Below, piece after piece: positions 1-46,935 of a stretch of DNA of 64,000 nucleotides. The stretch is taken from assembly GCA_015075445.1 (NCBI GenBank), contig JABTUJ010000001.1, positions 167,059-231,058 of the forward strand, given 5' to 3'. Origin of the DNA: Verrucomicrobiales bacterium. Its GTDB lineage: Bacteria; Verrucomicrobiota; Verrucomicrobiia; Limisphaerales; J093. The position numbers and the translations under genes are program-made. Position 1 is the stretch's first letter. The number at the start of each line of letters is the position of its first letter. The notes beneath the pieces are model-generated. The model ran no database searches. It saw nothing but the letters and a program-made list of their open reading frames with translations, and was not told where the DNA came from.

Positions 1-187
1 CGTTGGCGATGCGGAGGACGGCGGCGACCTGCTCGGTGTTGCGGGGCAATACCACAGCGCCCGGCATCTGGGACAGGGCCGCGGTTCCGTCGAACGAGTA
101 AGGGATCAGGTCTTCCTTCGCGGTCAGCACGTTCTCCGGGCCGAGCAGACGCTTGAGGTCGGCGACAACGGTTTCGGGCAGGGCCAT
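1..187 (-). CDS. FAD-linked oxidase, GlcD-like, N-terminal fragment (gene runs off the window start)
   Basis: Hand translation of the minus strand from ATG (complement of 185-187): MALPETVVADLKRLLGPENVLTAKEDLIPYSFDGTAALSQMPGAVVLPRNTEQVAAVLRIAN. This resembles N-termini of glycolate oxidase GlcD / FAD-binding PCMH oxidases. It is absent from the ORF track because there is no stop in the window. Divergent from lpdA. Confidence 0.6.
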   Translation of the reverse strand, partial: MALPETVVADLKRLLGPENVLTAKEDLIPYSFDGTAALSQMPGAVVLPRNTEQVAAVLRIAN

Positions 188-301
188 GGTGGGCGCAGCA
201 TGGGAAGGGGCGGACGAAGGGTCAAGTCTGCCGCCGGAGCGTGCCGCCGCAGCGCCGCGAGACTTGCCGGCCGGGCTTGCGCCCGGGATGCTCGCGTCGT
301 C

Positions 302-1690
302 ATGCCAACCGCACACGATCTGGTCGTCATCGGCGCGGGCCCCGGCGGCTACGTGGCCGCCCTCAAGGCCGCCCAACTGGGAATGAACGTCGCCTGCGTC
401 GAGCGCGAACCCGTGCTCGGCGGCACTTGCCTGCGGGTGGGCTGCATCCCGAGCAAGGTGTTGCTCGAGTCGAGCGAGAAGTTCGCGGAAACCCGGAGCG
501 AACTCGCGCGCCACGGCATCAAGGTCGCGTCGGTGGAACTGGACCTCGGCGCGATGCTGCAGCGCAAGCGCACCGTGGTGACCACCTTGACCAAGGGCAT
601 CGAGGGCCTGTTCAAGAAGCACCGGGTAACCCGCTACGCCGGACAAGGCCGCCTCACCGGTCCCGGGCAGTTGGTTGTGGAAGGAACCGACGGCGCCAAC
701 GAACTGACCGCGAAACAGATCCTGATCGCGACCGGCAGCCGCCCCGCGCCCTCGAAGGGGGTCGAGTTGGATGGCGACCGCATTGGCACGAGCACGGAGG
801 CGCTGAGTTATTCCGAGGTGCCCGGGCACTTGGTGGTGATCGGGGCGGGTTACATCGGGCTTGAGCTCAGCTCGGTCTGGCGGCGGCTCGGGGCCAAGGT
901 GACGGTGCTCGAATTCCTGCCGCGCATCCTGCCCGGGCTCGACAGCGAGCTGGCCGCCGAGGCGCAGAAGCTGTTGGCAAAGCAGGGGCTCGCGTTCCGT
1001 CTCGGGACGCGCGTGACCGCCGCGCGGGTCGAGGGAACGGGTTGCGTGGTCGAGATCGAGGGGGGCGAGCCGATTGCCTGCGACCGGGTGTTGCTGGCCG
1101 TCGGGCGCGTGCCGCACACGGAGGGCCTCGGTCTCGACGCGGTGGGGATCCGGCTCGATGAGAAGGGGCGGATTCCGGTGGACGACCACTTCGCCACGTC
1201 GGTGTCCGGAGTCTCGGCGATTGGCGACGTGATTCGCGGTCCGATGCTGGCTCACAAGGCCGAGGAGGAAGGGATCGCATTTGCCGAGCGACTGGCGACC
1301 GGCTATGGGCACGTAGACTACGGAGTGATTCCGGCCGTGGTGTACACGCATCCCGAGATCGCGTCGGTGGGTCGGACCGAGGACGAACTCAAGGAACGCG
1401 GCATCGAGTATCGCAAGGGCGTGTTTCCGTTTCTGGCCAGTGGCCGGGCGCGTTCGCTGGGGCAGACCGACGGCCGGGTGAAGGTGCTCGCAGATGCCGG
1501 GACCGACCGGGTGTTGGGCGTGCACATCCTCGGGCCGCGGGCGGGCGATCTGATTGCCGAGGCCGCCGCCGCGATGGCCTTTGGCGCCAGCAGCGAAGAT
1601 CTGGCCCGGGTTTGCCATGCCCACCCGACCCTGTCGGAGAGCCTCAAGGAAGCGGCCTTGGCGGTGACGGGCCAGGCGATTCATGTATAG
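302..1690 (+). CDS. lpdA: dihydrolipoyl dehydrogenase (E3 component)
   Basis: ORF 200..1690 trimmed to ATG 302, giving MPTAHDLVVIGAGPGGY (FAD GxGxxG). Has the redox-active disulfide motif GGTCLRVGCIPSK, a second NAD fold HLVVIGAGYIGLE, and the C-terminal HAHPTLSE dimer-interface motif. Confidence 0.92.
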   Translation: MPTAHDLVVIGAGPGGYVAALKAAQLGMNVACVEREPVLGGTCLRVGCIPSKVLLESSEKFAETRSELARHGIKVASVELDLGAMLQRKRTVVTTLTKGIEGLFKKHRVTRYAGQGRLTGPGQLVVEGTDGANELTAKQILIATGSRPAPSKGVELDGDRIGTSTEALSYSEVPGHLVVIGAGYIGLELSSVWRRLGAKVTVLEFLPRILPGLDSELAAEAQKLLAKQGLAFRLGTRVTAARVEGTGCVVEIEGGEPIACDRVLLAVGRVPHTEGLGLDAVGIRLDEKGRIPVDDHFATSVSGVSAIGDVIRGPMLAHKAEEEGIAFAERLATGYGHVDYGVIPAVVYTHPEIASVGRTEDELKERGIEYRKGVFPFLASGRARSLGQTDGRVKVLADAGTDRVLGVHILGPRAGDLIAEAAAAMAFGASSEDLARVCHAHPTLSESLKEAALAVTGQAIHV

Positions 1691-1700
1691 TGGGGGCAGT

Positions 1701-2408
1701 ATGACCCGCGAAACGTCCAAGACTGACACGGGCGTTCTTCCACCGGTCACCATCAAGGGTTCATACACACCGGTGGCTGGGGCGTGCTTTTGCGCGACGC
1801 GGGAGCGAGAAGAGCCAGCGACCCGGCGACGCTGGGCTTGCCAAATCGGCCTTCTGCTCCTGCTGCTGTCTTTGCTACCGGTGACAACTCAGGCGCAGGG
1901 CCAGTTCAATTTCGGCAATCGGTTCGCTTGTCAGTGTGACCCCGCTGTGTTCGATATCGATGGCCGGACGAAGTTGACGGGCCCGGACTTTGTGGTGCAA
2001 GCGTACGTGGGTTCGACACCCGCGAGTCTGAGTCCGTTGGGGCCGGTCTTGCCGTTCCGTACCGCCGCGGCCGTGGGCTTCTGGTGGAGCACTCAACTCG
2101 TGGTTCCAAACGCTCCCGCGGGAACGCTGGTCTACGTCGAGGCCCGAGCCTGGGAAGCCGCCGGCGGAGATTCCTGGGAAAGCGCGCAAGCGGCGGGCTT
2201 CAAGTACGGCCGCAGCAACACCGTTTGGCTGTGGCTGAGCGAACCTCCGGCGGCTCCCACAGACATGGTTGGTCTGCTGTCATTCCATCTGATCCCCGAG
2301 CCCTCGCCGTCCGCCCTGGCGCTGTTCGGTGCCGCGGTCCTCTTGGTGGCGCGTCGCCCGTACCGAGCCACGACTGCGGCGGGACGAGTTTACAATACTA
2401 TTGACTGA
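1701..2408 (+). CDS. PEP-CTERM sorting-domain secreted protein (function unknown)
   Basis: ORF 1683..2408. C-terminus IPEPSPSALALFGAAVLLVARR is a PEP-CTERM anchor (PEP motif, hydrophobic helix, basic tail). Has an N-terminal hydrophobic signal LLLLLSLLPVTTQAQG. Start is either ATG 1683 (overlaps the lpdA stop) or ATG 1701. Confidence 0.7.
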   Translation: MTRETSKTDTGVLPPVTIKGSYTPVAGACFCATREREEPATRRRWACQIGLLLLLLSLLPVTTQAQGQFNFGNRFACQCDPAVFDIDGRTKLTGPDFVVQAYVGSTPASLSPLGPVLPFRTAAAVGFWWSTQLVVPNAPAGTLVYVEARAWEAAGGDSWESAQAAGFKYGRSNTVWLWLSEPPAAPTDMVGLLSFHLIPEPSPSALALFGAAVLLVARRPYRATTAAGRVYNTID

Positions 2409-2413
2409 CCCCT
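2386..2413. repeat. 28-nt direct repeat, copy 1 (GAGTTTACAATACTATTGACTGACCCCT)
   Basis: Identical 28-mer at 3300-3327, read directly from the sequence. AT-rich relative to its surroundings. Contains the last codons and stop of the PEP-CTERM gene and, on the other strand, the last codons and stop of the Uma2 gene. Confidence 0.9.
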
Positions 2414-3186
2414 CGGCTAAGGTCGGCGACAAACGCTGCGTGTTCCGGGCTCTCCAGTCCGGCACGCAGCACCGCCATGAACCGGGCACCGTCACCAGCT
2501 AACAGGGCAGTCGTGTCCAGCCAAAGCCCGGGGAAGACCCGGCTGCGCAACACCCCGCCGGCATCGGCCGCCAGCGGACGATACTCATCCTCGTCGAGCA
2601 CCCACCAGTCCACCGCGGCGTCTTCGGTGCGCCACACGACGTATTCCCGCACGCCCGCGCGGCGATAGGATGTCAGCTTGTCGCGCACATCCAGCGACGC
2701 CGTGCTGGCCGAAACCTCGGCCACCAGTTCGGGGGCACCCAGCAGATAGCCCTTGGGATCGAGTCGGGCCTGTCCCCCACATTCGGGGACGATGCGCAGC
2801 AGGCCGTCGGGTTGCGGCACATCGTCCGGACCGAGCCGGGTGGTGGCGTTGGTGGCGGCCTTCACGCCTGGGGTGGCCACGCTGTAGCTGCACAACCAGC
2901 CTTGAATCAGGTTGTCGGGTTCGCCGTGCTGGTCGAGTCGAACGGGGGAAGCCATATACACGATGCCGTTGATCAGTTCCGCCTTCTTGAGTTCCGGCAT
3001 GGCCTCGTACCGGCGCAGGAACTCGCGGGCGCCGAGGTGCGCCCCGTTCTCGAGGGGTGGCACGCGTCCCGTGCCGGTGAAGGGCTTCCTGGCTGACACC
3101 GCGGTCACCATACGTCGGAAGGGTAGGCCGAGGGCGTGGCCGTGTCGAGTCGCGCGACTCCAAGTAGTGGGGTTGGGAATTGTCAA
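2398..3186 (-). CDS. Uma2 family (DUF820) PD-(D/E)xK endonuclease
   Basis: ORF 2398..3186. PPLENGAHLGAREFLRRYEAMPELKKAELINGIVYMASPV...APELVAEVSASTASLDVRDKLTSYRRAGVREYVVW is a typical Uma2/DUF820 pattern. Start is uncertain: the TTG at 3186 is part of a TTGACA box, so ATG at 3111 (MVTAVSARKPF) is equally plausible. Confidence 0.75.
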   Translation of the reverse strand: MTIPNPTTWSRATRHGHALGLPFRRMVTAVSARKPFTGTGRVPPLENGAHLGAREFLRRYEAMPELKKAELINGIVYMASPVRLDQHGEPDNLIQGWLCSYSVATPGVKAATNATTRLGPDDVPQPDGLLRIVPECGGQARLDPKGYLLGAPELVAEVSASTASLDVRDKLTSYRRAGVREYVVWRTEDAAVDWWVLDEDEYRPLAADAGGVLRSRVFPGLWLDTTALLAGDGARFMAVLRAGLESPEHAAFVADLSRGVSQ

Positions 3187-3299
3187 ATGTCAATGTTTGA
3201 CCCCATTGTCCCCGGGCAGCGGGTTCAAGCGCTGCCGAATGCCAGTGGTGGGTCCCAGTGAACCCGTATCGGCGGACCGCGAGGTGAGGCGGGTGGGAT

Positions 3300-3327
3300 G
3301 AGTTTACAATACTATTGACTGACCCCT
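3300..3327. repeat. 28-nt direct repeat, copy 2 (also the left arm of the hairpin)
   Basis: Identical to 2386-2413. The match extends to about 32 nt with one C/T mismatch (2385 vs 3299). Confidence 0.9.
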
Positions 3328-3365
3328 TAGGATGAGGGGTCAGTCAATAGTATTGTGCTTTTTGG
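3306..3365 (+). terminator. perfect 22-bp stem hairpin followed by GCTTTTTGGGG (intrinsic-terminator-like)
   Basis: ACAATACTATTGACTGACCCCT (3306-3327), loop TAGGATG, AGGGGTCAGTCAATAGTATTGT (3335-3356), then a T-run. Probably the ancestral terminator of the PEP-CTERM gene, now separated from it by the Uma2 segment. Confidence 0.5.
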
Positions 3366-3487
3366 GGACTGGTCGATGTCGGGTGAGAAGGGAGGTGGAG
3401 GGAATTCGCGGCGGCGGGCCTTGACGCCTCAACGGGTGGTGTGTTACCCACGCTCCGGACACATTTAGCTGTGGGTGAGCCAAGACT

Positions 3488-3961
3488 ATGCGCTGTCCCA
3501 AGTGCGGTTGTCGGGATGACAAGGTGATCGATTCGCGGGCTTCCCGCGAAGGCGCCACGATTCGGCGACGCCGCGAGTGTCTGGGGTGCAGCCATCGCTT
3601 CACGACGTACGAGCAGATTGAGACGCGGCCGTTGGTGGTGATCAAGCGGGATGGGCGGCGCGAGCTCTTTTCGCGGGAGAAGCTGCTCAACGGCATTACG
3701 CGCGCGTGTGAGAAGCGGCCGGTGAGCCCGGAGAGCATCGAGGAGGTGGTGGAGCGGATCAACGCGGAGCTGCACAGTGATTTCGATGGGGAGGTGCCGG
3801 GCACCGAGGTGGGCGAGCGGGTGATGAACGAGTTAAGGGTGCTCGACCAGGTGCTCGGTACTTCCGTTGGTGCCATGTACGGTCGAATCAGTTGTCGGTC
3901 GCGTGCTGGCCGATCGAACGGGCTTGTACATACGAAGCTGCTGATCAGTTCCGCCTCTTGA
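3488..3961 (+). CDS. nrdR: transcriptional repressor NrdR; native only to codon 122, with a chimeric C-terminus
   Basis: MRCPKCGCRDDKVIDSR...CLGCSHRFTTYE zinc ribbon followed by an ATP-cone (VIKRDGRRELFSREKLLNGI...). After ...ELRVLDQV (nt 3853) the frame reads through into the duplicated segment, antisense to the Uma2 fragment, giving 35 unrelated residues. The expected YVRFA... tail is found only after 4751. Confidence 0.8.
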   Translation: MRCPKCGCRDDKVIDSRASREGATIRRRRECLGCSHRFTTYEQIETRPLVVIKRDGRRELFSREKLLNGITRACEKRPVSPESIEEVVERINAELHSDFDGEVPGTEVGERVMNELRVLDQVLGTSVGAMYGRISCRSRAGRSNGLVHTKLLISSAS

Positions 3962-4073
3962 GTTCCGCGCATGGCTCGTACCGGCGCAGGAACTCGCGCC
4001 GAGTGCCTGCTTCTCGAGGGTGGCACGCGTCCCGTGCCGGTGAAGGGCTTCCCGCTGACACCGCGGTCACCAT
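3857..4073 (-). pseudogene. Uma2 endonuclease N-terminal fragment (duplicated, degraded)
   Basis: Aligns to 2880-3111 of the intact Uma2 gene (e.g. GATCAGTTCCGCCT(T)CTTGAGTTCCG..., CACGCGTCCCGTGCCGGTGAAGGGCTTCC) with indels. It lacks the whole C-terminal catalytic part. Confidence 0.7.
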
Positions 4074-4243
4074 ACGTCGGAAGGTAGGCTAGGGCGCGTC
4101 GAGTCGCGCGACGCAGTGGGGTTAGGAATGTCAAATGTCAATGTTGACCCCATTGTCCCCGCAGCGGGTTGGCGCGCTGAATGCCAGTGGTGGGTCCCAG
4201 TGAACCCGTCATCGGCGGACCGCGAGGTGAGGCGGTGGATGAG

Positions 4244-4290
4244 CTTAATATTGACCGACCCCTTGGGATGAGGGGCCAGTCAACGTATGC
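4244..4290 (+). repeat. degraded copy of the 28-nt repeat/hairpin
   Basis: CTTAATATTGACCGACCCCTTGGGATGAGGGGCCAGTCAACGTATGC aligns to 3303-3358 with deletions. Confidence 0.7.
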
Positions 4291-4410
4291 GCTTTGGGGA
4301 CCGGTCGATGTCGGTGAGAAGGGAGGTGGAGGGAATTCGCGGCGGCGGGCCTGACGCCTCAACGGGTGGTGTACCCACGCCCGACACATTAGCTGGGGTG
4401 AGCCAAGACT

Positions 4411-4807
4411 ATGCGCTGTCCCAAGTGCGGTTGTCGGATGACAAGGTGATCGATCTGCGGCTTCCCGCGAAGGCGCCACGATTCGGCGACGCGAGTATCG
4501 GTTCAGCCATCGCTCTCTGACGCACGAGCAGATTGAGACGCGGCCGCTGGTGGTGATCAAGGGATGGCGGCGCGAGCCTTGCGGAGAAGCTGCTCAACGG
4601 CATCGCGCGCGTGAGAAGCGGCCGGTGAGCCCGGAGAAGCATCGAGGAGTGGTGGAGCGGATCAACGCGGAGCTGCACGGTATTTCGATGGGGAGGTGCC
4701 GGCACCGAGGTGGGCGAGCGTGATGAACGAGCTGGCGTGCTCGACCAGGTTACGTCCGGTTCGCCAATGACCGTCGGTTTGAGGAGGCCACGGATTTCCT
4801 TCAAGCC
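4411..4807 (+). pseudogene. nrdR: nrdR second copy, multiply frameshifted; carries the only copy of the native 3' end
   Basis: ATGCGCTGTCCCAAGTGCGG at 4411 aligns to 3488 onward with many 1-3 nt gaps. After 4751 it reads YVRFANDRRFEEATDFLQAV, an NrdR C-terminal AYVRFASVYR-like motif. No in-frame stop precedes ORF 4808..5386. Confidence 0.7.
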
Positions 4808-5386
4808 GTGCAAAACTCGAGGGGCCCTGCGATACAGCTACGTACCGACTGCCTGGTTTTTGAAACCGCCAGTGGCGCCATTCCGTGCTCCGCCGAACAG
4901 GTCGCGGTGGAGTTGGTTGGCGAATCGGGCGACTGGCTTGATCCCGAGGTGGTCCGCAACGCCGCGGCGGGGGTGCTGCGCTATTTCAAGGATGACCTGG
5001 GGCGGATGACCGTGACGGTGGGGGAGTTTGCCGAGGCGCTGGCGCGCGTGCTGCGCGGTTTCGGCCTGGCGGTGGTGACCGAGGAGAATCCCCCGGAAGA
5101 ACCGACGCCGACGGTGGAACTGGATCTTCGCCGGCTGGCGCGGGAGTCCGGCACGGGCTTCGAGCTGGCGTTCTTCGGCCGGCTTCGCCACGAGGTGTGC
5201 GCGCGGTTGCAGACGCCGCCGCGCGTGCTGCGGTTCACCGGTTTGCGGGGCTGTGTCAAGCAACTGACCGCCGCCCGCCGCTGGTGCCCTCGGTGCCGCC
5301 GCCTGAACGACCACATCGTCACGTTTCTCCGGCAGTGCCTCGAGGAGAACGTAGGGGCGGGGGCTTGCTCGGTGGTCGTGTCGTGA
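4808..5386 (+). CDS. hypothetical protein
   Basis: ORF track 192 aa with a GTG start and high GC3. I recognise no family. Its stop overlaps the XerC-like GTG start (GTGA at 5383-5386). The 5' boundary is unclear because the frame is open back to 4727 and continuous with the nrdR tail. Confidence 0.35.
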   Translation: MQNSRGPAIQLRTDCLVFETASGAIPCSAEQVAVELVGESGDWLDPEVVRNAAAGVLRYFKDDLGRMTVTVGEFAEALARVLRGFGLAVVTEENPPEEPTPTVELDLRRLARESGTGFELAFFGRLRHEVCARLQTPPRVLRFTGLRGCVKQLTAARRWCPRCRRLNDHIVTFLRQCLEENVGAGACSVVVS

Positions 5387-6351
5387 ACACCCCGGACCCC
5401 GCCTCGACGGCGGCTGCCGATCCGGAAGTGGTGGCCTTCCTGACCCACCTGGAGACGGATCGCGGGGCTTCCCCTTACACGCAGCGGAACTACGAACAGG
5501 CCCTGCGGGAGTTCGCCCGGTGGCATCAGGACCAACGCGGGTCCCCGCCTTCCTGGCGCGAGCTTGGGCGTGACGATTTCCGGGCGTTTCTTCGATTTCT
5601 GGGTCGCAGCTCGCTGGGTCGCGCCGCCGTCCAGCTTCGCTTCAGCGCGCTGCGGACCTTTTACCGGTTCCTGGTCCGGCGCGGTCAACTGACGCGAACG
5701 CCGTTGCGGAACCTCGCCTTGCCGCGCCCGCCCCGGCGCCTGCCGAAATTCCTCACCACCGGTCAGATCCCCGCGCTGCTCGGGGCACCGATGTGCGAAC
5801 TCGAGCGGCTTCGCCAGGCCGATTCTCCGCCGTCGCGCGAGATCGAGGCGGACTTTTGGCGCGATGCGGCGATCCTCGAGACGATCTACTCCTGCGGTCT
5901 GCGGATCAGCGAGCTGTGCGGCTTGCAGGCCGAGGACGTGGACTGGAACGAGCAACAGTTGCGCATCCGGGGCAAGGGGAAGAAGGAACGGCTGGTGCCG
6001 ATCGGCGCCCCGGCCCTGGAAGCGATCCGCGCTTATTGGAAGCGGTTGGAGCCGGCGCCGGGCGGTGCGGAACCGGTATTCCGGGCGCGCGCCGGATCGC
6101 CAGACCCGGTCCTGCCGCGGACAGTGCAATCCCGGCTCAAGCGTTACCTGGCGGCGGCGGGGCTCGATCCGGCACTCACACCTCACAAACTGCGGCACAG
6201 TTTCGCCACGCACCTGCTCGATGCCGGCGCGGATCTGCGGAGTGTTCAGGAGTTGCTGGGACACACGCATCTCGTCACGACGCAGGTGTACACGCATCTC
6301 ACGACCGAGAGGCTCAAAAGGGTGTACGACGCGGCCCATCCGCGTGCCTGA
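5383..6351 (+). CDS. xerC: tyrosine site-specific recombinase, XerC/XerD family
   Basis: ORF 5197..6351 trimmed to GTG 5383 (VNTPDPAS...). N-terminal SAM-like domain (FLTHLETDRGASPYTQRNYEQALREF). Catalytic signature includes ETIYSCGLRISEL, LRHSFATHLLDAGADLRSVQELLGHTHLVTTQVYTH (R..HxxR..Y). Confidence 0.85.
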   Translation: MNTPDPASTAAADPEVVAFLTHLETDRGASPYTQRNYEQALREFARWHQDQRGSPPSWRELGRDDFRAFLRFLGRSSLGRAAVQLRFSALRTFYRFLVRRGQLTRTPLRNLALPRPPRRLPKFLTTGQIPALLGAPMCELERLRQADSPPSREIEADFWRDAAILETIYSCGLRISELCGLQAEDVDWNEQQLRIRGKGKKERLVPIGAPALEAIRAYWKRLEPAPGGAEPVFRARAGSPDPVLPRTVQSRLKRYLAAAGLDPALTPHKLRHSFATHLLDAGADLRSVQELLGHTHLVTTQVYTHLTTERLKRVYDAAHPRA

Positions 6352-6623
6352 TCCCCCACGGCCCTGGCTTGCGGAGTACGACATTTGCCCGCGAAAATCG
6401 CGAAGGGACGCGAAAGGAAGAGGGAGGGAGGCGAGCGCGTGCTCAGGTCCCTCTGGCCCGCTGGTGTGGCTTGGCGGATTTGGCGGGCGCTTTCGACCAA
6501 CCGGCTTGACTCGGAGGTATCGGCAGCGCCACAAACTTCCCCGCTAATCCATGAAGCCGTGGCCCGGCGGACCCGCGCAGGAAAGGCTCCCCGCCGCAAC
6601 GCCGGTCTGGTACTCTGCGGCGC

Positions 6624-7190
6624 ATGAACAACTGGATTTCCCAATACGTGCGGGCGCAGCAGGCGGCGCTCGAGTCCATCCCCCAGGCCGCCGTCGAACG
6701 CATCATCGAGCGGCTCGGCCGGGCGCTGGTGGACGACCAGCAGGTATTCGTCTTCGGCAACGGCGGCAGCGCGGCCAACGCCTCCCACTTCGCGACCGAC
6801 CTGGGCAAGGGTGCCTCGGACAAGCTGGGGCGCCGTTTCCGGGTGCTTTCGCTTAACGACAACGTGAGCTGGCTCACCGCGCTGGGCAACGACTACGCGT
6901 ACGAGGATATCTTCCTGCGCCAGCTTGAGAACTACGCCCGACCGGGCGACATCGCGTTGACCATGAGCGTGAGCGGCAACTCACCGAACTTGGTCAAGGC
7001 GATCGAGTGGGCCCGGAACAACGGCCTGCACACCATCGCGCTGGTGGGCGGCAAGCGGGGTGCCCTGGCGGGGTTGGCCGAGGAGGTGATCGTCATCGAC
7101 TCCGAGCACTATGGTCGGGTCGAGGATGCGCACATGGGGATCTGCCACATGCTCTGCTACGCGTTCATGGAGGGCCAGGCCACGGTGTGA
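6624..7190 (+). CDS. SIS-domain protein, phosphoheptose isomerase (GmhA)-like
   Basis: VFVFGNGGSAANASHFATDL, LTMSVSGNSPNLVKAIEWARNNGLHTIALVGG and EDAHMGICHML follow the GmhA/SIS pattern. Confidence 0.7.
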   Translation: MNNWISQYVRAQQAALESIPQAAVERIIERLGRALVDDQQVFVFGNGGSAANASHFATDLGKGASDKLGRRFRVLSLNDNVSWLTALGNDYAYEDIFLRQLENYARPGDIALTMSVSGNSPNLVKAIEWARNNGLHTIALVGGKRGALAGLAEEVIVIDSEHYGRVEDAHMGICHMLCYAFMEGQATV

Positions 7191-7290
7191 GGAGGGCGCG
7201 CGATGATTCGCCGGACCACCAGCGCGGAAGGGCAGAGGCAGAGGAGCAGCCTCGCGGGGACCGACCCAGCCCAGGTACTTCCGAACCGTT

Positions 7291-7361
7291 GTCGGCGCCG
7301 ACGTGAGGAGGCGTTTTCGTACAGGGGCAAGCACACTTCACCTCCTCACGTCGGCGCCTAC
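7291..7361. repeat. REP-like inverted pair (type A), 7 nt upstream of the large gene's start codon
   Basis: GTCGGCGCCGACGTGAGGAGGCG (7291-7313) and CACCTCCTCACGTCGGCGCCTAC (7339-7361) form a hairpin. Same family as 26418, 35822 and 42347. Confidence 0.8.
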
Positions 7362-7367
7362 GATGCG

Positions 7368-10300
7368 ATGCCCGGCCTGGCAGCGTGTCGGCCTTCCCAA
7401 GTTCGACGAGCGCCCTGGCGCAACGCTTGGTCCCTGGTGCTGGTGGGCGTTGCGGTTTGGTTCTCCGTCGCGGGTAGCCCTGCGGCCGTCCCTGCCACGG
7501 CGCCGCTTCGCATCGCCTTCCTCGCCGCGGAACCGGCCGTGCCGGAGATGGGCCCGCACAATCGGGCGGCGTGGGAAACCGCGCAAGCGATTGGCACGGC
7601 CACCCTGCTGGTGTCCCGCCCGGGCGGGCAGTTTGCGGATGCGTCCGGGCAACCGCGCGAGCTGGCCGGGTTTGATGTGGTTTGGCACCACCAGGGAGAC
7701 TCGATCCGGCGAACCGTTCTGCACGGGGGGCCGCACCTGGCGGCGATCCGGCGCTTCGCCGAACAGGGTGGGGGCGTGCTGCTCTCCGGTGGCGCGTTGG
7801 CGATGGTGGACAATCTCGGGCTCGAGCCCGACGTCCGCGCGCAACGGCACGAGCTCGAGAACTACCGGGATCCGGCGGCGCTGGTGGCGGTCGTGCCGGC
7901 GCACCCGGTGTTTGTGGGCTTGGCCGCCGAGCGCGATCGGATCTGGCTCAGCCAGGGAGGTTGTCCGGCGGTTGCGGACTTCTACTGGGGCGGGCCTGGG
8001 GAGGGTCGGGTGCTGGGGAACACGCTGGACGGCGTCCGAAAACCGCTCGTGGAATACGCGGTGGGCACGGGACGCCTGATCGCCTTCGGCTGGCGCTGGC
8101 CCGACTATGCCGACCGCGAAAACGCGCACCGCGGGAACCTGGTGCGGCTCACGGCGAATCTCCTGCATTACCTCGCCGATGCGCGCCAATGGCAGCCGGT
8201 CGTCATTCCCTCGAAGTTCCCGCCGGTTGCGGATCCTGCGGAACCGGGCATCGCACCAGCGCGCTGGCGGGCCTTGCACCTGGCGATCGACGACCTGGTC
8301 AACGAGTTTGGTGAGCGCTACCCAGACGGCGCGCGCTACTGCGCCCAGCTCGACGCTCTTGAGGCCGAACATGCCCGCCTGCCGCGCTCGGGCGACCGGG
8401 CGGCCTTCGCCTCGCTGGTGGCGCGCTTCGAGGCCCTGCAGCGGGAGGCCTTGCTGGCGAATCCCCGGCTGGACTTCGACCGGCTGCTGATGATCCGGCG
8501 CCGGGCGGATCGGCTGGGCCTGCCGATGAACTACCACGGCAACACCGATATTGCTGCCACCGGTTACAAGAACACCCTCGTGGCTTTGTCGCCCGTGGCG
8601 CCGGACGGCAGGATCGAGACGGTGTACCGGCCCGACGGAGATCGTTTCATCGGCGACCTTGACTTGCACTACGACGGGGACAAGGTGCTGCTCTCGATCC
8701 CCGACGCCGGCGGACGCTGGGGCCTGGCGGAACTGGACTTGAACCGCGGCATCTTGCGCGCGCTGCCGTTGATCGACGATCCCGACGTCCACAACTACGA
8801 CGGGTGCTATCTGCCGGACGAGAGCATCGTGTTCACCTCGACGGCGCCGTTCATCGGGGTGCCGTGTGTGGGCGGCAGCTCGCTGGTCGCCAATCTCTAT
8901 CGCTTCGGTCCGGGCGGGAGGATCCGGCGCCTGACGAACGACCAGGACCACAACTGGTGCCCCGCGGTGCTCAACCACGGTCGCCTGCTCTACCAGCGTT
9001 GGGAGTATGCGGACATTGCCCATGCGTTCACCCGGCTGCTCTTCCAGGCCAACCCGGATGGCACGGGTCAGATGGAGTACTACGGCAGCAACTCCTATTG
9101 GCCCACCGCGCTGTTCTACGCCCGTCCCGTGCCCGGCCACCCCACGAAGGTCGTCGCCGTGGTCGGGGGGCATCACGACGCGCCGCGACAGGGCGAACTG
9201 GTGGTGTTGGATCCGGCCTTGGGGCGGCACGAGACCCGCGGCGTCGTGCAGCGCATCCCGGGTTATGGAGAGAAGGTCGAGCCGGTCATTCTCGATGGGC
9301 TGGCGGCCTCGAGTTGGCCGCGGTTTCTGCACCCCTATCCGCTCGGCGAAAAGCATTTCCTGGTGGCGTGCCGACCGACGAAGGCGTCGCTCTGGGGCGT
9401 GTACCTCGTGGATGTGTTCGACAACTTTGTGTTGCTGCACGAAGAACCCGGCTGGGCCTTCCTCGAACCCACTCCGTGGCGCCCGACGCCGCGCCCACCG
9501 GTCGTGCCGGATCGTACCGACCCCGACAGCCGCGAGGCCACGGTGCTGCTCGCGGACATCTATCGTGGACCGGGTCTGGAGGGGGTGCCGCGCGGGACGG
9601 TGAAGGCGCTGCGGCTGACGAGCTACACGTTCACTTTTCACGGTCTGGGCGCCGAACCCGATCGCGTGGGCTTGGACGGTCCGTGGGACGTCAAGCGCAT
9701 CCTGGGCACCGTGCCGGTGGAGACGGATGGCTCCGCCAACTTCCGTGTCCCCGCCGACACGCCGGTGAGCCTGCAACCGCTGGACGCCGACGGAAAGGCG
9801 CTGGCACTGATGCGCAGTTGGATGACCGCGGTGCCGGGCGAGGTGTTGTCGTGCGTCGGTTGTCACGAGCCGCAGAATTCGACCGTGCCCGTGGGGGACC
9901 GACCGCTGGCTTTGCGGCGCGCGCCCTCGACGATTCAGCCGTGGTACGGACCGGCCCGGGGTTTTTCCTTCGAGCGCGAAGTGCAGCCGGTGCTTAATGC
10001 GAGGTGCGTGGCCTGCCACCACGGAGGGCCGTTGGCCGATGGGCAGGCGACGTTTGACCTGCGCGCCCGACCCGCTGCGCGGGTCCCGTCGGCCTTTCAA
10101 ATGCACTTCTCGCCGGCCTACATGGAACTCCGCCGCTGGGTGCACACGCCCACGCTCGAGAGCGACGCGCACCTGCTGCCGCCGCGCGATTTCCACGCGG
10201 ATACGAGCCGGCTGATCCAGATCCTGCGGGACGGGCATTACGGGGTCGCGCTCAGCCCGGAAGCCTGGGATCGCCTGATCACCTGGATCGACCTCAACGC

Positions 10301-11390
10301 CCCGTATCACGGTACCTGGCAGGAGGTGGTGGCGTCGAACCCCACCAAGCTCGCCGCCGCTCGGCACGGCGCCCAACGCCGTCGGGCGCTCGACGCCGCG
10401 ACCACGTGCCTGGAGGACGTGCCCGACGCTATTCATCCCGCCGCGGTGCTCGAAGCGGTGCCCGCGCCCGGTCCCTCCGCAGACTTCGTCGCCCTGGATT
10501 TCCGCGAAGCGGAACTGCCCGCCGATCCGAATGGCCTGAACCCGTCGTCAGGGTCCGCGTCGGTCGTTTGCGTGGCCCTGGGCGGTGGCGTTTCGCTGGA
10601 CCTGATCCGGGTCGAGCCCGGCCGGTTTGTGATGGGTGCCGACCGCGGTTATCCGAACGAACGCCCGGCCCACGCGCGGGTGATCGAGCGTCCTTTCCTC
10701 ATGGGGCGGTTCGAGGTTTCCAACGCGCAGTTCCGCTGTTTCGATCCCGCCCACGACAGCGGGCTCGAGACTGGTGAAGCCTATCAGTTCGGTGATGACG
10801 AGCGTGGGTTCACGCTGAACCGGCCCGAGCAGCCCGTGGTCCGGGTTTCCTGGGAACGGGCCATGGCCTTCTGCCAATGGCTTTCGGAACGCACGGGCCG
10901 ACGCTTCACGCTGCCGACCGAAGCGCAGTGGGAATACGCCTGCCGCGCCGGGACGAGCACGCCGTTGTCGTACGGCACGCTGGACACGGACTTCAGCCCC
11001 TTCGCCAACCTGTCCGATGCCACGCATTACACGGTCTATTACCCGCATGTCCCGGACGCCCTGCCGTCCTGGCGCCCGGCGGACACGCGCTTCGACGACC
11101 GCTGGCGCGTCGCGGCTCCCGTCGGGTCGTTCCAGCCGAACCCCTGGGGACTTCACGACCTGCACGGCAACGTGGCGGAGTGGACCCGGTCGGATTACCG
11201 CGCTTATTCCGCCGCGGCGTCCGCCGACGAGGAAGACTTCGCGGTCGGTCCGGGCACGCGGAAGGTGGTCCGGGGTGGTTCGTGGTTCGACCTGCCGCGG
11301 CGCAGTCGGTCGGCGTTCCGCCTGCACTACGAAGCCTCGCAGGCGGTGGGCGACGTCGGATTCCGCGTGGTCTGCGAGGAAGGGTCCTGA
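7368..11390 (+). CDS. large multidomain secreted protein: GATase1/ThuA-like N-domain, beta-propeller-like middle, two CxxCH motifs, C-terminal formylglycine-generating-enzyme (SUMF1/FGE) domain
   Basis: ORF 7203..11390 trimmed to ATG 7368 (upstream codons are the REP element). Signal-like WSLVLVGVAVWFSVAGSPAAV. CVGCH at 9853-9867 and CVACH at 10005-10019. C-terminus RVEPGRFVMG...NERPAHARVIERPFLMGRFEVSNAQF...RVSWERAMAFCQWLSERTGRRFTLPTEAQWEYACRAGT...NPWGLHDLHGNVAEWT...VVRGGSW is a classic FGE-sulfatase domain. Confidence 0.75.
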   Translation: MPGLAACRPSQVRRAPWRNAWSLVLVGVAVWFSVAGSPAAVPATAPLRIAFLAAEPAVPEMGPHNRAAWETAQAIGTATLLVSRPGGQFADASGQPRELAGFDVVWHHQGDSIRRTVLHGGPHLAAIRRFAEQGGGVLLSGGALAMVDNLGLEPDVRAQRHELENYRDPAALVAVVPAHPVFVGLAAERDRIWLSQGGCPAVADFYWGGPGEGRVLGNTLDGVRKPLVEYAVGTGRLIAFGWRWPDYADRENAHRGNLVRLTANLLHYLADARQWQPVVIPSKFPPVADPAEPGIAPARWRALHLAIDDLVNEFGERYPDGARYCAQLDALEAEHARLPRSGDRAAFASLVARFEALQREALLANPRLDFDRLLMIRRRADRLGLPMNYHGNTDIAATGYKNTLVALSPVAPDGRIETVYRPDGDRFIGDLDLHYDGDKVLLSIPDAGGRWGLAELDLNRGILRALPLIDDPDVHNYDGCYLPDESIVFTSTAPFIGVPCVGGSSLVANLYRFGPGGRIRRLTNDQDHNWCPAVLNHGRLLYQRWEYADIAHAFTRLLFQANPDGTGQMEYYGSNSYWPTALFYARPVPGHPTKVVAVVGGHHDAPRQGELVVLDPALGRHETRGVVQRIPGYGEKVEPVILDGLAASSWPRFLHPYPLGEKHFLVACRPTKASLWGVYLVDVFDNFVLLHEEPGWAFLEPTPWRPTPRPPVVPDRTDPDSREATVLLADIYRGPGLEGVPRGTVKALRLTSYTFTFHGLGAEPDRVGLDGPWDVKRILGTVPVETDGSANFRVPADTPVSLQPLDADGKALALMRSWMTAVPGEVLSCVGCHEPQNSTVPVGDRPLALRRAPSTIQPWYGPARGFSFEREVQPVLNARCVACHHGGPLADGQATFDLRARPAARVPSAFQMHFSPAYMELRRWVHTPTLESDAHLLPPRDFHADTSRLIQILRDGHYGVALSPEAWDRLITWIDLNAPYHGTWQEVVASNPTKLAAARHGAQRRRALDAATTCLEDVPDAIHPAAVLEAVPAPGPSADFVALDFREAELPADPNGLNPSSGSASVVCVALGGGVSLDLIRVEPGRFVMGADRGYPNERPAHARVIERPFLMGRFEVSNAQFRCFDPAHDSGLETGEAYQFGDDERGFTLNRPEQPVVRVSWERAMAFCQWLSERTGRRFTLPTEAQWEYACRAGTSTPLSYGTLDTDFSPFANLSDATHYTVYYPHVPDALPSWRPADTRFDDRWRVAAPVGSFQPNPWGLHDLHGNVAEWTRSDYRAYSAAASADEEDFAVGPGTRKVVRGGSWFDLPRRSRSAFRLHYEASQAVGDVGFRVVCEEGS

Positions 11391-11403
11391 AGGTTCAGGG
11401 GAA

Positions 11404-12762
11404 TCAAGCGGGTCCGGAAGTCACGGGGAACTTCCACGGTGCCCGGTACTCGGGAATCGCCGCGCGCGCCGCCTCGGGATCCCCGACGATTTTCTCGGTG
11501 TCCGGATCGAAGCGGATCGAGCGCCCCAGCTTCAGCGACAGGACACTCAGCACGATGGGCACATCCACCTTTACGTGATGAAAGACGCTGCAACTGGGCT
11601 GCTGGCGCGAGTGGATGCAATCCAGCCATTCCCGCTCCTGGCCGGGTGAAGGTGGGATGGACGGCGGCGGTACCGGCTTGTGCTTCAGGCCATCGCCCTC
11701 CGACACGAGCGTCGAGGCGCCCAGGTAATCGGCGTAGAGGGTGCCATTGACGCCGTGGAAGTAGACGCCCAGCCGGGTGCGCGGCTGGGGGTCGCCCTGC
11801 AGGTCGAAGCCGTAGCTGTTCGTGATCGACATCATCCAGGTCAGCGTCAGGTTCGGATACCGCCACAGCACCTCGTGATGGTCGTAAGCGTCGCCGTCGT
11901 CGCGAACGACGAACCGACCGCCCGAGGCGCTGGTGACGAGCGGGTAACCCAGATCCAGCGCGGTGATGGGGAGGTCCAGCATGTGCGGCCCATTGCCGGG
12001 GGTCCAACCGCCGCTGTAGTCCATCCACGAGCAGTGATGATAGGCGTCGGACGCCAGCAGGCGGTTGTACGGCCGCAGGGGACCGGGGCCGCACCACAGA
12101 TCCCAGTCCAGCCCCTCGGGCGGGTCTTGATACCCGCCGGTGCCGATGCCGCGCGGCGACTGGTTCATGACGTTGAAGGCGCGGGCCACGCCGATGGGGC
12201 CGAGGTTTCCGGACCGCACATATTCGATGACGCGGTGATGTTCCGGGCGGGCGTGGTGCTGGGTGCCCACCTGGCTGATGCGGCCGTGTTTGCGGACGGC
12301 ATCGCGCACGGCCAGGCTTTCGGCCAGGTGCAGCGTCATGGGTTTCTGGATGTAAAGGTCCTTGCCCGCTTCGCAGGCGGCGATGGCCTGGAGGGCATGC
12401 CAGTGGGGCAGGGTGCCGATGATCACGGCATCCAGATCGCGTTGCGCGAGCAGCTCACGGTAATCGCGGTAACCGCGGCAGGTGTCCTTGTAGCGCTGGA
12501 CGACGGGTTCGAGCCGGTTCTCGTCGGCGTCGCAGACCGCGGTCACCACGACGTCCGGGTGCGCGGCGCAGTTGCTCAGGTTCACGCGGCCCATGTGGCC
12601 GCAGCCGATCAGGCCGAGGTGAATCCGGCGGTTCGGCCGCGTGCTGGCCGAGGGGGTGGGGTCGGCGGCGGACGCCAGGTGAGGCGCGGCGAAGCCGATG
12701 GCGCTGAGGGTGGCCGCCTTCTCGAGGAAAGCTCGGCGGGGAAGCGAGCGGGAAGCGTTCAT
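11404..12762 (-). CDS. Gfo/Idh/MocA family oxidoreductase with twin-arginine (Tat) signal
   Basis: ORF 11404..12891 trimmed to ATG 12762. MNASRSLPRRAFLEKAATLSAIGFAAPHLASA is a Tat-type signal. IHLGLIGCGHMG Rossmann motif. The remainder is typical of the Gfo/Idh/MocA fold. Confidence 0.75.
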   Translation of the reverse strand: MNASRSLPRRAFLEKAATLSAIGFAAPHLASAADPTPSASTRPNRRIHLGLIGCGHMGRVNLSNCAAHPDVVVTAVCDADENRLEPVVQRYKDTCRGYRDYRELLAQRDLDAVIIGTLPHWHALQAIAACEAGKDLYIQKPMTLHLAESLAVRDAVRKHGRISQVGTQHHARPEHHRVIEYVRSGNLGPIGVARAFNVMNQSPRGIGTGGYQDPPEGLDWDLWCGPGPLRPYNRLLASDAYHHCSWMDYSGGWTPGNGPHMLDLPITALDLGYPLVTSASGGRFVVRDDGDAYDHHEVLWRYPNLTLTWMMSITNSYGFDLQGDPQPRTRLGVYFHGVNGTLYADYLGASTLVSEGDGLKHKPVPPPSIPPSPGQEREWLDCIHSRQQPSCSVFHHVKVDVPIVLSVLSLKLGRSIRFDPDTEKIVGDPEAARAAIPEYRAPWKFPVTSGPA

Positions 12763-12933
12763 GGTGGTCGGGCGACAGCCTGCGGAAACGCGCGCGCCGG
12801 CGCAAGGAGGACGATGTCGCGGCAGTAGCGCAGTCGGGGGAGAAAAGGAGGAGGAGCCAGGAAAAGCGCCTTTTCTTTCCGGGCCGGGCACCTACACTCC
12901 TCCGCTTATTTGACACGACCACCCGCGCTTGCT

Positions 12934-15000
12934 ATGGCCGAAGACAAATCCGCGGTTCAACCGCTCCCTGCCCCACCGCTTGCCCCCCTGAAGCTGAAGC
13001 CGCGTCTGGCGCCCACGCCGCGGCAGGCGCCGCGCTACGCCGTGACGGTGCGGCAGTCCGACGGCACGGAGGTGGTGCTTGCAGACCCGCGGGCGACCCG
13101 GGCGTTGGTGGCGCTGATGAACGTCCACGCGGTGAACGGGGGCGCTGCCTGCCACTGGGGCGGACCGGCGGCGTTTGCCGAGATCAATGCCGCCCTCCAC
13201 GGGCTGATGTTCGCCGTGCGGGACCGCGAATGGTACGAGGCGTTCAACTACGTGAACGACGCCGGGCACACCGAGAACGGGCTGTACGCGTTGCGGGCGA
13301 ACTACGGCTTTGACGGTCTGACCTTCGAGGCGCTCAAGGGATTTCGCAGCCTGGCGAGCAAGCTGACCGGGCACGGCGAGTCGCACCTGAATCCCGAGGG
13401 CGTGCTGCTGAGCAACGGCCCGCTCGGCTCGGCGCTGCCGCAGGCGCAAGGCCTGGCCCTGGCCGACAAGCTTGCCGGCAACGACCGCCTCACGATCGCC
13501 GTGGTCTCGGATGGTGCGGCGATGGAAGGGGAGGCGAAGGAGGCTTTTGCGGCCATCCCCGGCCTGGCCGCCAAGGGCCGGCTGAACCCGTTCGTGCTGA
13601 TCCTGTCGGACAACGACACCAAGTTGTCGGGGCGCATCAGCAAGGACGCATTCAGCATGGCGCCCACGTTGGCGGCCTTCGCGGCGCTGGGCTGGCGCGT
13701 GATGGACGTCCCGAACGGCCACGATCTTCCTGCGGTGTACCAGGCGCTGGAGGGGGCGATGGCGCAGGCGAAAGCCGACCCGCGCCAACCGGTGTGTGTG
13801 CGGTGCAAGACCATCAAGGGTTACGGAGTCAAGGCCACGGTCGAGAGTGCGTCGGGCGGCCACGGCTTCCCGCTGAGCAGCGGCGAGAAGATCGTCGAGT
13901 TCGTCAGCGAGATCTACGACGGCGCACCGCCGGCCGAGTTCGGCGACTGGGCCAGGGCGTTGCGTGCCGAATGGGAGGCGAAGGAGGCCGCGAAGCAGGC
14001 CAAGCCCGCCGCCGCGGCGCCGGCCCCACCACCGGTCAAGAAGGACAAGGTGCAGAGCGGGCTCGCGCGGGGCGCCATCCGGGCGGCCCAGGCGGGTTAC
14101 CCGGTGTTCTCCGTGTCCTCGGACGTGCAGGGCTCGACCGGGATCAGCCCGTTTCAGAAGAGCTTCCCCGATCGCTGGGTCGAGGTGGGGGTGGCCGAGG
14201 CGAACATGGTCAGCACCGGGGCGGGCCTGTCGAAGCACGGGTTCATTCCCATCGTGGACACCTTCGCTCAGTTCGGCGGCACCAAAGGCAACCTGCCGCT
14301 CACGATGGCGGCGCTCTCCCAGGCACCGGTGATCGCCATCTTCTCGCACGCCGGGTTGCAGGACGCCGCCGACGGCGCGTCGCACCAGGCCACGACGTAT
14401 CTGGCGGCGGTCAGCGCGATCCCGCACACCGTGGTGGTGGCGCCCTCCTGTGCCGAGGAGGCGGAGGCACTCATGTTCGAAGCCATCCAGCGCCTGGGCG
14501 ATGCCCGCGCGAAGGGTGAGGACGGCGAGAGCGTGGTGTTCTTCGTCGGACGTGAGAATTACCCGGTCCGTTGGCGCGAAGGCGCGGCCTACCCGTGGGG
14601 CCGGGCGCAGGTGTTGGCGGAGGGAACCGACGTGGTGTTGGTGGGCTGCGGCACGCTGACGAGCAAGGTTATCGAGGCGGGGAAGGCGTTGGCTGCGGAA
14701 GGGCTGAAGGCGGCGGTGGTGCATCATCCGTTTGTGAACCGGCCGGACACTGGCACCCTCGCGCCCCTGGTGCAGGCGTGCGGCGGACGGCTGGTGACGA
14801 TTGAAGATCACCAGGTCATCGGCGGATTGGGCGCCCAACTTTCCCATGCCCTGTCCCGCGCCGGCACGGCGCATCGGGTCGTTTCCCTCGGCATCGCCGG
14901 CGAGTTCGGCCAATCGGCGTACGTGGCCGAGCAACTGTACGAGAAGCACGGGCTGACTGCCGCCCGGGTGATGGAGGCCGCCCGTCAACTCCTCTGCTGA
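12934..15000 (+). CDS. transketolase-family protein (fused N- and C-terminal halves)
   Basis: ORF 12910..15000 with ATG at 12934. TPP-binding-like VVSDGAAMEGEAKEAF...LILSDNDTKLSG. Pyrimidine-binding half FPDRWVEVGVAEANMVSTGAGLS...SHAGLQDAADGASHQ. Confidence 0.7.
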   Translation: MAEDKSAVQPLPAPPLAPLKLKPRLAPTPRQAPRYAVTVRQSDGTEVVLADPRATRALVALMNVHAVNGGAACHWGGPAAFAEINAALHGLMFAVRDREWYEAFNYVNDAGHTENGLYALRANYGFDGLTFEALKGFRSLASKLTGHGESHLNPEGVLLSNGPLGSALPQAQGLALADKLAGNDRLTIAVVSDGAAMEGEAKEAFAAIPGLAAKGRLNPFVLILSDNDTKLSGRISKDAFSMAPTLAAFAALGWRVMDVPNGHDLPAVYQALEGAMAQAKADPRQPVCVRCKTIKGYGVKATVESASGGHGFPLSSGEKIVEFVSEIYDGAPPAEFGDWARALRAEWEAKEAAKQAKPAAAAPAPPPVKKDKVQSGLARGAIRAAQAGYPVFSVSSDVQGSTGISPFQKSFPDRWVEVGVAEANMVSTGAGLSKHGFIPIVDTFAQFGGTKGNLPLTMAALSQAPVIAIFSHAGLQDAADGASHQATTYLAAVSAIPHTVVVAPSCAEEAEALMFEAIQRLGDARAKGEDGESVVFFVGRENYPVRWREGAAYPWGRAQVLAEGTDVVLVGCGTLTSKVIEAGKALAAEGLKAAVVHHPFVNRPDTGTLAPLVQACGGRLVTIEDHQVIGGLGAQLSHALSRAGTAHRVVSLGIAGEFGQSAYVAEQLYEKHGLTAARVMEAARQLLC

Positions 15001-15009
15001 CTTCCCCTC

Positions 15010-15420: not shown

Positions 15421-15496
15421 AGTCTGGCACGGCGGACGCCTGGCCGTCCTCGGTCCGGAGGCCAGAGGCGCCGGCGCCAGCCGCGAAGTCCTCGGT

Positions 15497-20449: not shown

Positions 20450-20456
20450 TGGTTGG

Positions 20457-35803: not shown

Positions 35804-35821
35804 CCCGGAGATCTCATCCGC

Positions 35822-42334: not shown

Positions 42335-42346
42335 TTCATGTCCCCC

Positions 42347-46909: not shown

Positions 46910-46935
46910 TCGACTGGTAATTCCCGGGCCGCGAT

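Follow-up and report, generated by a model that had tools for sequence, protein, structure and literature searches.

In nanopore reads, deletions are more frequent than mismatches and mismatches more frequent than insertions, and these errors are tied to homopolymers, with substitutions biased towards A/T (PMC8486125). The pseudogenisation of genes by frameshifts is a known consequence of long-read errors (PMC12007338, PMC8486125). Real bacterial pseudogenes have been found to carry a few indels per gene, with insertion:deletion ratios of 0.76–0.94 (PMC6054270).

Here, we analysed a window of 64,000 nucleotides from a member of the Verrucomicrobiales (assembly GCA_015075445.1, contig JABTUJ010000001.1, positions 167,059 to 231,058), in which a tandem repeat breaks the gene nrdR. 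Positions 3854–4831 very probably hold essentially raw sequence of single-molecule-read quality, through which a 983-bp unit appears a second time, spuriously, in an otherwise polished assembly. We regard the duplication as an artefact because its second copy has raw long-read errors and because other assemblies of this bacterium carry one intact nrdR. The features concerned are as follows, where L001 is an 18.7-kb short-read contig of the same organism (ENA ERZ27309508) that spans the whole locus.

2398–3111, minus strand: gene of the Uma2 family, annotated with 237 aa in other assemblies (Pfam PF05685, E = 3e-24), with its 5′ end within the repeated unit
2904–3853, plus strand: copy 1 of the repeated unit, clean, with the Uma2 5′ end (minus strand, first 69 codons), the Uma2–nrdR intergenic region and nrdR codons 1–122
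3488–3961, plus strand: chimeric open reading frame of nrdR codons 1–122 followed by 35 junk codons from the noisy patch (Pfam: Zn_ribbon_NrdR complete, ATP-cone cut to profile positions 2–71 of 88)
3854–3884, plus strand: noisy continuation of nrdR (true codons about 123–133) up to the head-to-tail junction, through which the repeat alignment passes
3885–4777, plus strand: copy 2 of the repeated unit, a noisy, error-laden version of L001 1807–2789
4411–4863, plus strand: nrdR copy 2 with 21 frameshifting indels, the true stop codon corresponding to 4861–4863
4778–4831, plus strand: noisy single-copy sequence past the repeat, comprising the 3′ region of nrdR and the start of the downstream 185-aa gene, whose ATG is destroyed
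4829–5386, plus strand: conserved 185-aa gene overlapping the nrdR 3′ end (L001 2842–3399), its start codon corrupted in the window
about 44340–46460, plus strand: second patch, noisy in the same way, in single-copy sequence that covers the C-terminal half of a histidine kinase, the receiver domain of a response regulator and a further 0.8 kb or so

Within the window, Smith–Waterman alignment places the repeat head to tail, with 2904–3885 found again at 3885–4776 (850 matches, 33 mismatches and 65 indel events, i.e., 57 deletions and 8 insertions in copy 2 relative to copy 1). Self-BLAST pairs 2904–3852 with 3885–4750 (86.7% identity over 955 columns, 32 mismatches, 95 gap columns, E = 0), and both methods confirm the direct repeat of about 0.95 kb that an earlier note on this DNA had located at these coordinates. 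The unit measures some 981–983 nt, has its 3′ limit at nrdR codon 133 and abuts its repetition at 3885 with zero spacer; a TTGA (4-nt) microhomology is possible at both breakpoints. The shared motif CTCGACCAGGT (3842–3852 and 4740–4750), which had been proposed as the boundary of the repeat, does not bound it, as the similarity runs on to 3885 and 4776. Likewise, the limit previously set at codon 122 (position 3852) holds as the boundary between clean and noisy sequence but not as the repeat junction. That junction, at 3885, joins true position about 2789 to 1807 and lies inside one contiguous noisy stretch.

The switch from clean to noisy sequence falls at 3853/3854, and the noise ends at 4831, in unique sequence 54 nt beyond the repeat. 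Aligned to L001 1807–2843 (1037 nt), the noisy stretch shows 56 deletion events totalling 102 nt, 8 insertion events totalling 12 nt (64 indel events in all) and 30 substitutions, with an insertion:deletion ratio of 0.14 and an error of 13.9%; its first part (3854–3884) aligns to L001 2757–2789 with several indels and substitutions. About 9% of the positions in the stretch bear an event, compared with at most 0.2% in the flanks. Homopolymers hold 24 of the 34 single-base deletions versus a background of 47% (p = 0.005), and the transitions lean to G/C (T>C or A>G in 17 of 24). Judged from the sequence, this spectrum is that of single-molecule-read error and not of pseudogene decay. The segment GTACTTCCGTT, which we take to resemble part of a nanopore adapter, was considered as an adapter remnant at 3854–3885 and rejected, since the full 33 nt align better to the true nrdR tail. 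Because the substitution bias is towards G/C here and towards A/T in the published nanopore profile (PMC8486125), the sequencing platform cannot be named.

Outside 3854–4831, the window differs from the short-read contigs by 0–7 substitutions and zero indels. Against L001 there are 5 substitutions and 0 indels over 1098–3853, and 7 substitutions over about 15 kb of flanks. Downstream of 4831, we counted 2 substitutions against L001 as far as 17190 and 0 differences as far as 11246 against L002, a contig from ERZ27309506. Copy 1 has 0 indels relative to independent assemblies, whereas 94 differences separate copy 2 from the same reference over 1037 nt. L002 covers the final 89 nt of the patch and elsewhere matches the window at 100% over 6.4 kb, and the final four differences from both L001 and L002 lie at 4812, 4822 and 4828–4831.

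The locus is present once in short-read metagenome contigs of the same organism from ENA (ERZ27309508 and ERZ27309506) and Logan (SRR11593520, SRR22385476 and SRR7842620), which match the clean sequence of the window at 99.8–100% identity. The true gene order reads PEP-CTERM-like gene, Uma2 (minus strand), a single intact nrdR of 161 aa, the overlapping 185-aa gene and xerC. L001 matches 1098–3853 and then continues directly with the sequence from 4751 on. In five independent short-read assemblies, contigs run unbroken across one or both unit boundaries: the right boundary is traversed by L001, L002, L003 (100% identical over 3340–3853) and L006, and the left one by L001, L019 and L020 (100% identical over 2283–3203), with the exact Uma2 protein encoded on the latter two. 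Neither the duplication junction nor a break at the unit boundaries was found on any of the same-organism contigs examined. Short-read de Bruijn assembly is prone to collapsing tandem repeats, and the single-copy contigs thus speak against a duplication only through this lack of breaks. Pattern scans of JGI metagenome contigs gave 0 matches for the predicted clean junction and are uninformative, as the wild-type control likewise gave 0 and the organism is absent from that collection. Strain variation occurs in the Uma2 region, where L001 and the window differ by 5 substitutions (2558–3137). Among relatives, each of eight Verrucomicrobiota MAG loci has one full-length nrdR, which the 185-aa gene adjoins in 8 related MAG loci. 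When the genome collection was queried with the 185-aa protein, a relative at about 90% identity was retrieved (JAOSKK010000038.1, MAG Verrucomicrobia FR_27).

The true nrdR (L001 2391–2876, 161 aa) scores 187.7 bits against TIGR00244 (cut-off 124.65) over profile positions 1–147 of 147; Pfam detects both its zinc ribbon and its ATP-cone, and residues 1–151 align to PDB NrdR chains (E = 3e-40). In the window, as the earlier note had recognised, neither copy is intact: the final 39 residues are missing from copy 1, and 21 frameshifts disrupt copy 2. The claim that copy 1 is clean for 122 codons proved exact, with 0 DNA differences from the true gene over 366 nt, and the by-eye estimate of 25–30 gaps and about 10 substitutions for copy 2 came close to the computed 25 indels (21 of them frame-shifting) and 11 substitutions. 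The ‘native tail’ ascribed to copy 2 is itself damaged, the true tail being AYVRFASVYRRFEEATDFLQAVQKLERPHDTATYRLPGF*, and the noise up to 4831 abolishes the reading frame as far as its stop codon. The NrdR repressor of this organism is almost certainly intact, and its truncated and frameshifted versions are artefacts. By eye, the motif in a hairpin upstream of nrdR is out of register with what we presume to be the 16-bp NrdR-box consensus.

In the second patch, stops occur throughout all frames, and the alignment of the kinase to homologues passes through frames 1, 2, 1, 2, 1 and 3, with in-frame stops in addition. Its left edge is set only by this frame-hopping; on the right, it stops shortly after a short-read contig begins, and the window shows 4 errors against this contig at 46419–46460 (58-nt overlap) and then 0 in about 9.1 kb (100% identical). 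In the search for a reference for the patch, the protein of the neighbouring 708-aa gene had no exact match, and the best homologue of the kinase N-terminus has 63% identity. That the patch is a noisy duplicate of neighbouring sequence was rejected after a sensitive self-BLAST gave no such match. Codon periodicity is low at 42–47 kb, for which Rfam and tRNA scans gave no RNA genes as an explanation.

The earlier note had offered two readings: a real duplication with a decayed copy that would inactivate NrdR, or an uncollapsed and unpolished assembly repeat. The single-copy contigs, the one-sided and indel-rich noise and the second patch point to the latter. That the unit was truly duplicated and copy 2 then decayed, leaving the organism without functional NrdR, would fit the window as given, with neither nrdR copy intact, but is very improbable. 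Independent assemblies carry one intact nrdR, and the flanks are 99.95–100% identical to other samples, which leaves no time for about 9% divergence. Neutral decay would not be expected to give divergence so out of proportion to the flanks and confined to one copy, nor indels that exceed substitutions by 2:1 at an insertion:deletion ratio of 0.14 versus 0.76–0.94 in real pseudogenes (PMC6054270). Moreover, the noise extends 54 nt into unique sequence where otherwise identical contigs carry the correct sequence, and it recurs in unrelated single-copy genes about 40 kb away. It is scarcely credible that copy 2 instead came from a co-assembled related strain or species as a chimeric haplotype, even though the source is evidently a metagenome and strain variants are known in the Uma2 region. 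The closest relative (L009, about 90% identity) differs from the reference at 44 positions, and copy 2 has just 3 of these in common with it. A diverged homologue would keep its frames, whereas copy 2 has 21 frameshifting indels in the 486 nt of nrdR; the NrdR protein is 83–99% conserved across close Verrucomicrobiota relatives (L009–L013).

A further explanation, which we consider unlikely, is that the sequenced strain or a subpopulation does carry the 983-bp tandem duplication, the noise of copy 2 alone being technical. Copy 2 would then be an intact nrdR with its own (duplicated) promoter, and the repressor would still be functional; in addition, a truncated NrdR of about 133 codons would be expressed from the native promoter upstream of the intact gene and, with a DNA-binding zinc ribbon and a broken ATP-cone, could interfere with ribonucleotide reductase regulation. 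Consistent with this explanation, the contiguous noisy stretch includes the junction, and the two breakpoints possibly share the TTGA microhomology. In addition, in ERZ27309506, the sample that matches the window exactly, the start of L002 (true position 2755) precedes the end of the unit by only 34 nt, which counts against an artefact, and look-ups of Uma2 and the PEP-CTERM gene did not recover a contig of this sample over window positions 2505–3851. However, this start is not where a break would be expected from a branch at 2789–2794 with k = 141, and five independent short-read assemblies traverse one or both unit boundaries unbroken. The junction is noisy on both sides, which indicates that no accurate reads were placed there during polishing. 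Spontaneous tandem duplications are also rare and unstable.

For the assembly artefact that we favour, we propose that two ends derived from long reads overlapped by about 1 kb, one having stopped near nrdR codon 133 and the other having started inside Uma2, and that, where they should have been merged, they were strung together end to end; one aberrant read may instead have served as the bridge. Short-read polishing would then have cleaned all sequence where short reads could be placed. If these reads favoured the copy anchored in unique upstream sequence, copy 1 would have become perfect while copy 2 and the junction were left raw. The boundaries between noisy and clean sequence lie at or just inside the ends of ERZ27309506 contigs, and the window otherwise matches this sample at 100%.

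These observations are chiefly of use for quality control. An annotator who trusted the window as it stands would report loss of NrdR, a pseudogenised Uma2 fragment and a downstream gene without a start, all of them spurious, and the second patch (about 2 kb) falsely pseudogenises a histidine kinase/response regulator pair. The assembly probably contains further such raw patches, and pseudogene counts, gene-loss inferences and duplication calls therefore need re-checking after re-polishing.

Compared with described systems, the locus resembles the uncollapsed overlaps, or false tandem duplications, of hybrid or long-read (meta)genome assemblies, in that a perfect copy stands beside one with dense short deletions enriched in homopolymers. 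It shares with unpolished long-read assemblies the frameshift-pseudogenised genes (PMC12007338, PMC8486125), the halting of noise where accurate short-read data start and the presence of a second raw patch in the contig. The ranking of deletions over mismatches over insertions and the link to homopolymers match the cited nanopore profile (PMC8486125), whereas the G/C-ward substitution bias differs from it and the error of 13.9% is above that typical for recent nanopore chemistry. With genuine bacterial tandem duplications that undergo pseudogene decay, the locus has in common the head-to-tail arrangement with zero spacer, the possible 4-nt microhomology and the one frame-disrupted copy; unlike in these, the divergence is one-sided, indel-dominated (ratio 0.14) and reaches into the unique flank, and the duplication is missing from independent assemblies of the same strain. 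As for NrdR, the ATP-cone and zinc-ribbon repressor of ribonucleotide reductase genes (TIGR00244; structures 9fvr and 7p37), neither copy in the window encodes it as written, both defects being artefacts, and the true 161-aa protein of the organism matches the family end to end.

The apparent duplication of nrdR in the window is almost certainly not a biological feature, even though the direct repeat that underlies it is far above chance level. Self-BLAST aligned 2904-3852 with 3885-4750 at E = 0, with 86.7% identity across 955 alignment columns, of which 32 are mismatches and 95 contain gaps. Smith-Waterman alignment lengthened the match to 2904-3885 against 3885-4776 (850 matches, 33 mismatches); the second unit, copy 2, has 57 deletion events totalling 99 nt and 8 insertion events totalling 9 nt. 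Both alignments bear out the repeat described in the earlier note, and the longer one corrects its boundaries: the match runs to 3885 and 4776, and the copies directly adjoin each other at exactly 3885. The motif CTCGACCAGGT, proposed as the common end of both copies, is not the junction, since similarity goes on for ~30 nt past it in each copy. The Uma2-family, NrdR and xerC genes were all found as previously named:

2398-3186, minus strand, Uma2-family protein ORF
3488-3961, nrdR copy 1 ORF, with the NrdR zinc ribbon complete but the ATP-cone truncated
5383-6351, xerC, downstream of the nrdR ORF

An exact-protein look-up of the 6624-7190 product retrieved eight contigs of this organism assembled from short-read metagenomes. 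On the 18.7-kb MEGAHIT contig L001 (ENA ERZ27309508), whose coordinates we call true positions, the gene order begins with a PEP-CTERM-like gene of 241 aa and a minus-strand Uma2; a single NrdR of 161 aa comes next, the 3' end of its gene is overlapped by a 185-aa gene, and xerC and a SIS-domain gene follow. This NrdR (L001 2391-2876) clears the TIGR00244 cut-off of 124.65 with 187.7 bits and aligns over residues 1-151 with solved NrdR structures. Window 1098-3853 differs from L001 by 5 substitutions and 0 indels; the next sequence on L001 is window 4751 onwards, and only 2 substitutions separate the two over 4832-17190. Contigs L003 (SRR11593520) and L006 (SRR22385476), respectively 100% and 99.8% identical over 3340-3853, pass into the true nrdR tail without duplication, and the unit's left boundary (2904) is spanned unbroken by L019 (SRR7842620) and L020 (SRR11593520). 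A single full-length nrdR, with the same gene after it, is also present in the closest genome found, a Verrucomicrobia MAG annotated 'FR-Pedosphaerales-1' (~90% nucleotide identity), and in each of seven Verrucomicrobiota MAGs that are more distant. Contigs of ERZ27309506 are 100% identical to clean window sequence:

L022, window 1-2504
L002, window 4832-11246
L018, window 46461-55547

With L001 as reference, the locus is laid out as follows:

up to 3853, clean sequence, reaching true position 2756
3854-3884, noisy sequence, true 2757-2789
3885-4831, noisy sequence, true 1807-2843
from 4832 onwards, clean sequence

The abnormal part is one contiguous stretch of ~978 nt that comprises the junction, all of copy 2 and 54 nt of unique sequence past the repeat, where the nrdR frame is lost and the ATG of the downstream gene is altered. 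For exactly 122 codons, the length already reported as clean, nrdR copy 1 shows no difference from the true gene; noise follows. The repeated frameshifting noted in copy 2 was likewise recovered: its nrdR part holds 11 substitutions and 25 indels, 21 of them frameshifting.

The 185-aa protein directly 3' of nrdR (4829-5386; L001 2842-3399; around 6001-6555 in the related loci L009-L016) had no match in Pfam, NCBIfam and PDB sequence searches. The start of its gene overlaps the nrdR 3' end by ~32-35 nt in the five closest relatives, the pairing persists to ~30% identity across 8 MAG loci of Verrucomicrobiota, and the protein may be a lineage-specific NrdR partner.

A perfect 22-nt repeat, ACAATACTATTGACTGACCCCT, lies on both sides of Uma2 at 2392-2413 (+), 3306-3327 (+) and 3335-3356 (-). 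The relative L009 has it at 4610-4631 (+) and 5432-5453 (-), an inverted pair ~800 nt apart; the extra direct copy in the window adjoins the right arm and so gives rise to both a direct repeat of 36 nt (2378-2413 and 3292-3327) and, immediately ahead of nrdR, a hairpin with a 22-bp stem (-46 kcal/mol, z = -8.8) that is followed by a T-run. More distant relatives have the position without Uma2, and the arrangement resembles the insertion of a Uma2 cassette into a terminator hairpin; alternatively, the repeats resemble terminal inverted repeats. All five window/L001 substitutions upstream of the patch (2558, 2670, 2671, 2677, 3137) fall within the Uma2 gene region and the ERZ27309506 contigs break on both sides of it, at 2504 and 3852, which suggests strain-level variation concentrated at Uma2. 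Elsewhere in the window there are two tandem arrays (20311-20464 and 21302-21496), one with 7-nt and 21-nt units (GGGCGAA, GGTCGAA) and the other with three copies of a 77-78-nt unit that contains GGTTGAGTCTCGTCACCTCGACTCC, a motif of which a further copy lies at 35852-35891. The dispersed GC-rich motif TAGGCGCCGACGTGAGGAGGCG (7277-7318, 35811-35852, 35876-35917, 42333-42374), found in intergenic or gene-start regions and at times as an inverted pair (7291-7311 / 7341-7361), may be a REP-like element. A 914-aa ORF (33059-35803) holds three internal repeats, ~915-924 nt long and ~66-74% identical, which indicates a protein in which one large domain is present as three diverged copies.

A codon-position GC scan revealed only one other long stretch without coherent coding signal, 44545-46943, in which no RNA genes were found. 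Alignments to homologues of the sensor kinase starting at 43180 stay in frame 1 as far as 44337 and then jump through frames 2, 1, 2, 1 and 3 with in-frame stops to ~45281, after which a garbled receiver domain follows. This second noisy patch (44340-46460), with dense indels in single-copy sequence, spans the C-terminal half of the sensor histidine kinase, the receiver domain of a NarL/LuxR-type response regulator and ~0.8 kb (about 45600-46400) that separates this receiver from the GerE helix-turn-helix and might be an inserted mobile element; the patch ends 58 nt inside the start of L018. Against L018, which starts at window 46403, there are 4 indel/substitution errors in 46419-46460 and then 0 in 9 kb. 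Similarly, L002 starts at true 2755, the window differs from it 8 times in its first 89 nt and then 0 times in 6.4 kb, and clean copy 1 ends within 2 nt of the same true position. The noise therefore begins and ends where accurate ERZ27309506 short-read sequence stops and starts, as would be expected if short reads had corrected a low-coverage long-read backbone or bridge only in the parts to which they could be assigned.

Two long-read-derived ends overlapping by ~983 bp, one ending near true 2789 and the other starting at 1807, were most likely concatenated instead of merged, or else one aberrant read formed the bridge. During short-read polishing, reads and read pairs anchored in unique upstream sequence would have brought correction into copy 1. 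The cleaned copy 1 would then have drawn all remaining reads, so that copy 2 stayed raw, as did the junction and the edge, where coverage was thin. Concatenation and polishing of this kind would explain a perfect copy 1 beside a raw copy 2, the noisy junction and the spill of noise into unique sequence. We consider it improbable that the duplication is real in the sequenced DNA and only copy 2 unpolished, although the look-ups yielded no ERZ27309506 contig across window 2505-3851, L002 starts 34 nt ahead of the unit's end and the breakpoints show a possible TTGA microhomology. Scans of JGI metagenome contigs gave 0 matches to the predicted junction and 0 to the wild type as well, and so speak neither for nor against the duplication. 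Even then, the organism would keep its repressor, as the real copy 2 would be an intact nrdR under its own promoter. The single-copy independent contigs, the error-type differences and the second noisy patch favor the uncollapsed, unpolished assembly repeat that the earlier note had offered as one option. Its other option, inactivation of the NrdR repressor, is not supported, as L001 has a single intact 161-aa NrdR and the divergence is wholly one-sided. The repeat is useful as a warning: raw patches in this assembly make false pseudogenes, a known result of long-read errors (PMC12007338).

Of the differences counted in the patch against true positions 1807-2843, 30 are substitutions (24 of them transitions), 56 are deletion events that remove 102 nt and 8 are insertion events that add 12 nt. 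The overall per-base difference is 13.9%; 24 of the 34 single-base deletions lie in homopolymer runs (background 47%, p = 0.005). Copy 2 has only 3 of the 44 substitutions of the relative L009 and is thus not a co-assembled diverged haplotype, and flanks that differ by <=0.2% from other samples leave no evolutionary time for 9-14% decay. Real bacterial pseudogenes carry just a few indels each, and their ratio of insertion to deletion events is 0.76-0.94 (PMC6054270), in contrast to ~64 indels per kb and a ratio of 0.14 in the patch. Published nanopore error profiles rank deletions above mismatches and mismatches above insertions, with more than half of deletions linked to homopolymers and lower accuracy in high-GC DNA (PMC8486125), and the patch follows the same order. 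However, its substitutions are biased to G/C instead of the A/T given for nanopore (PMC8486125) and its error rate is high for recent nanopore chemistry, and we therefore do not name the sequencing platform.
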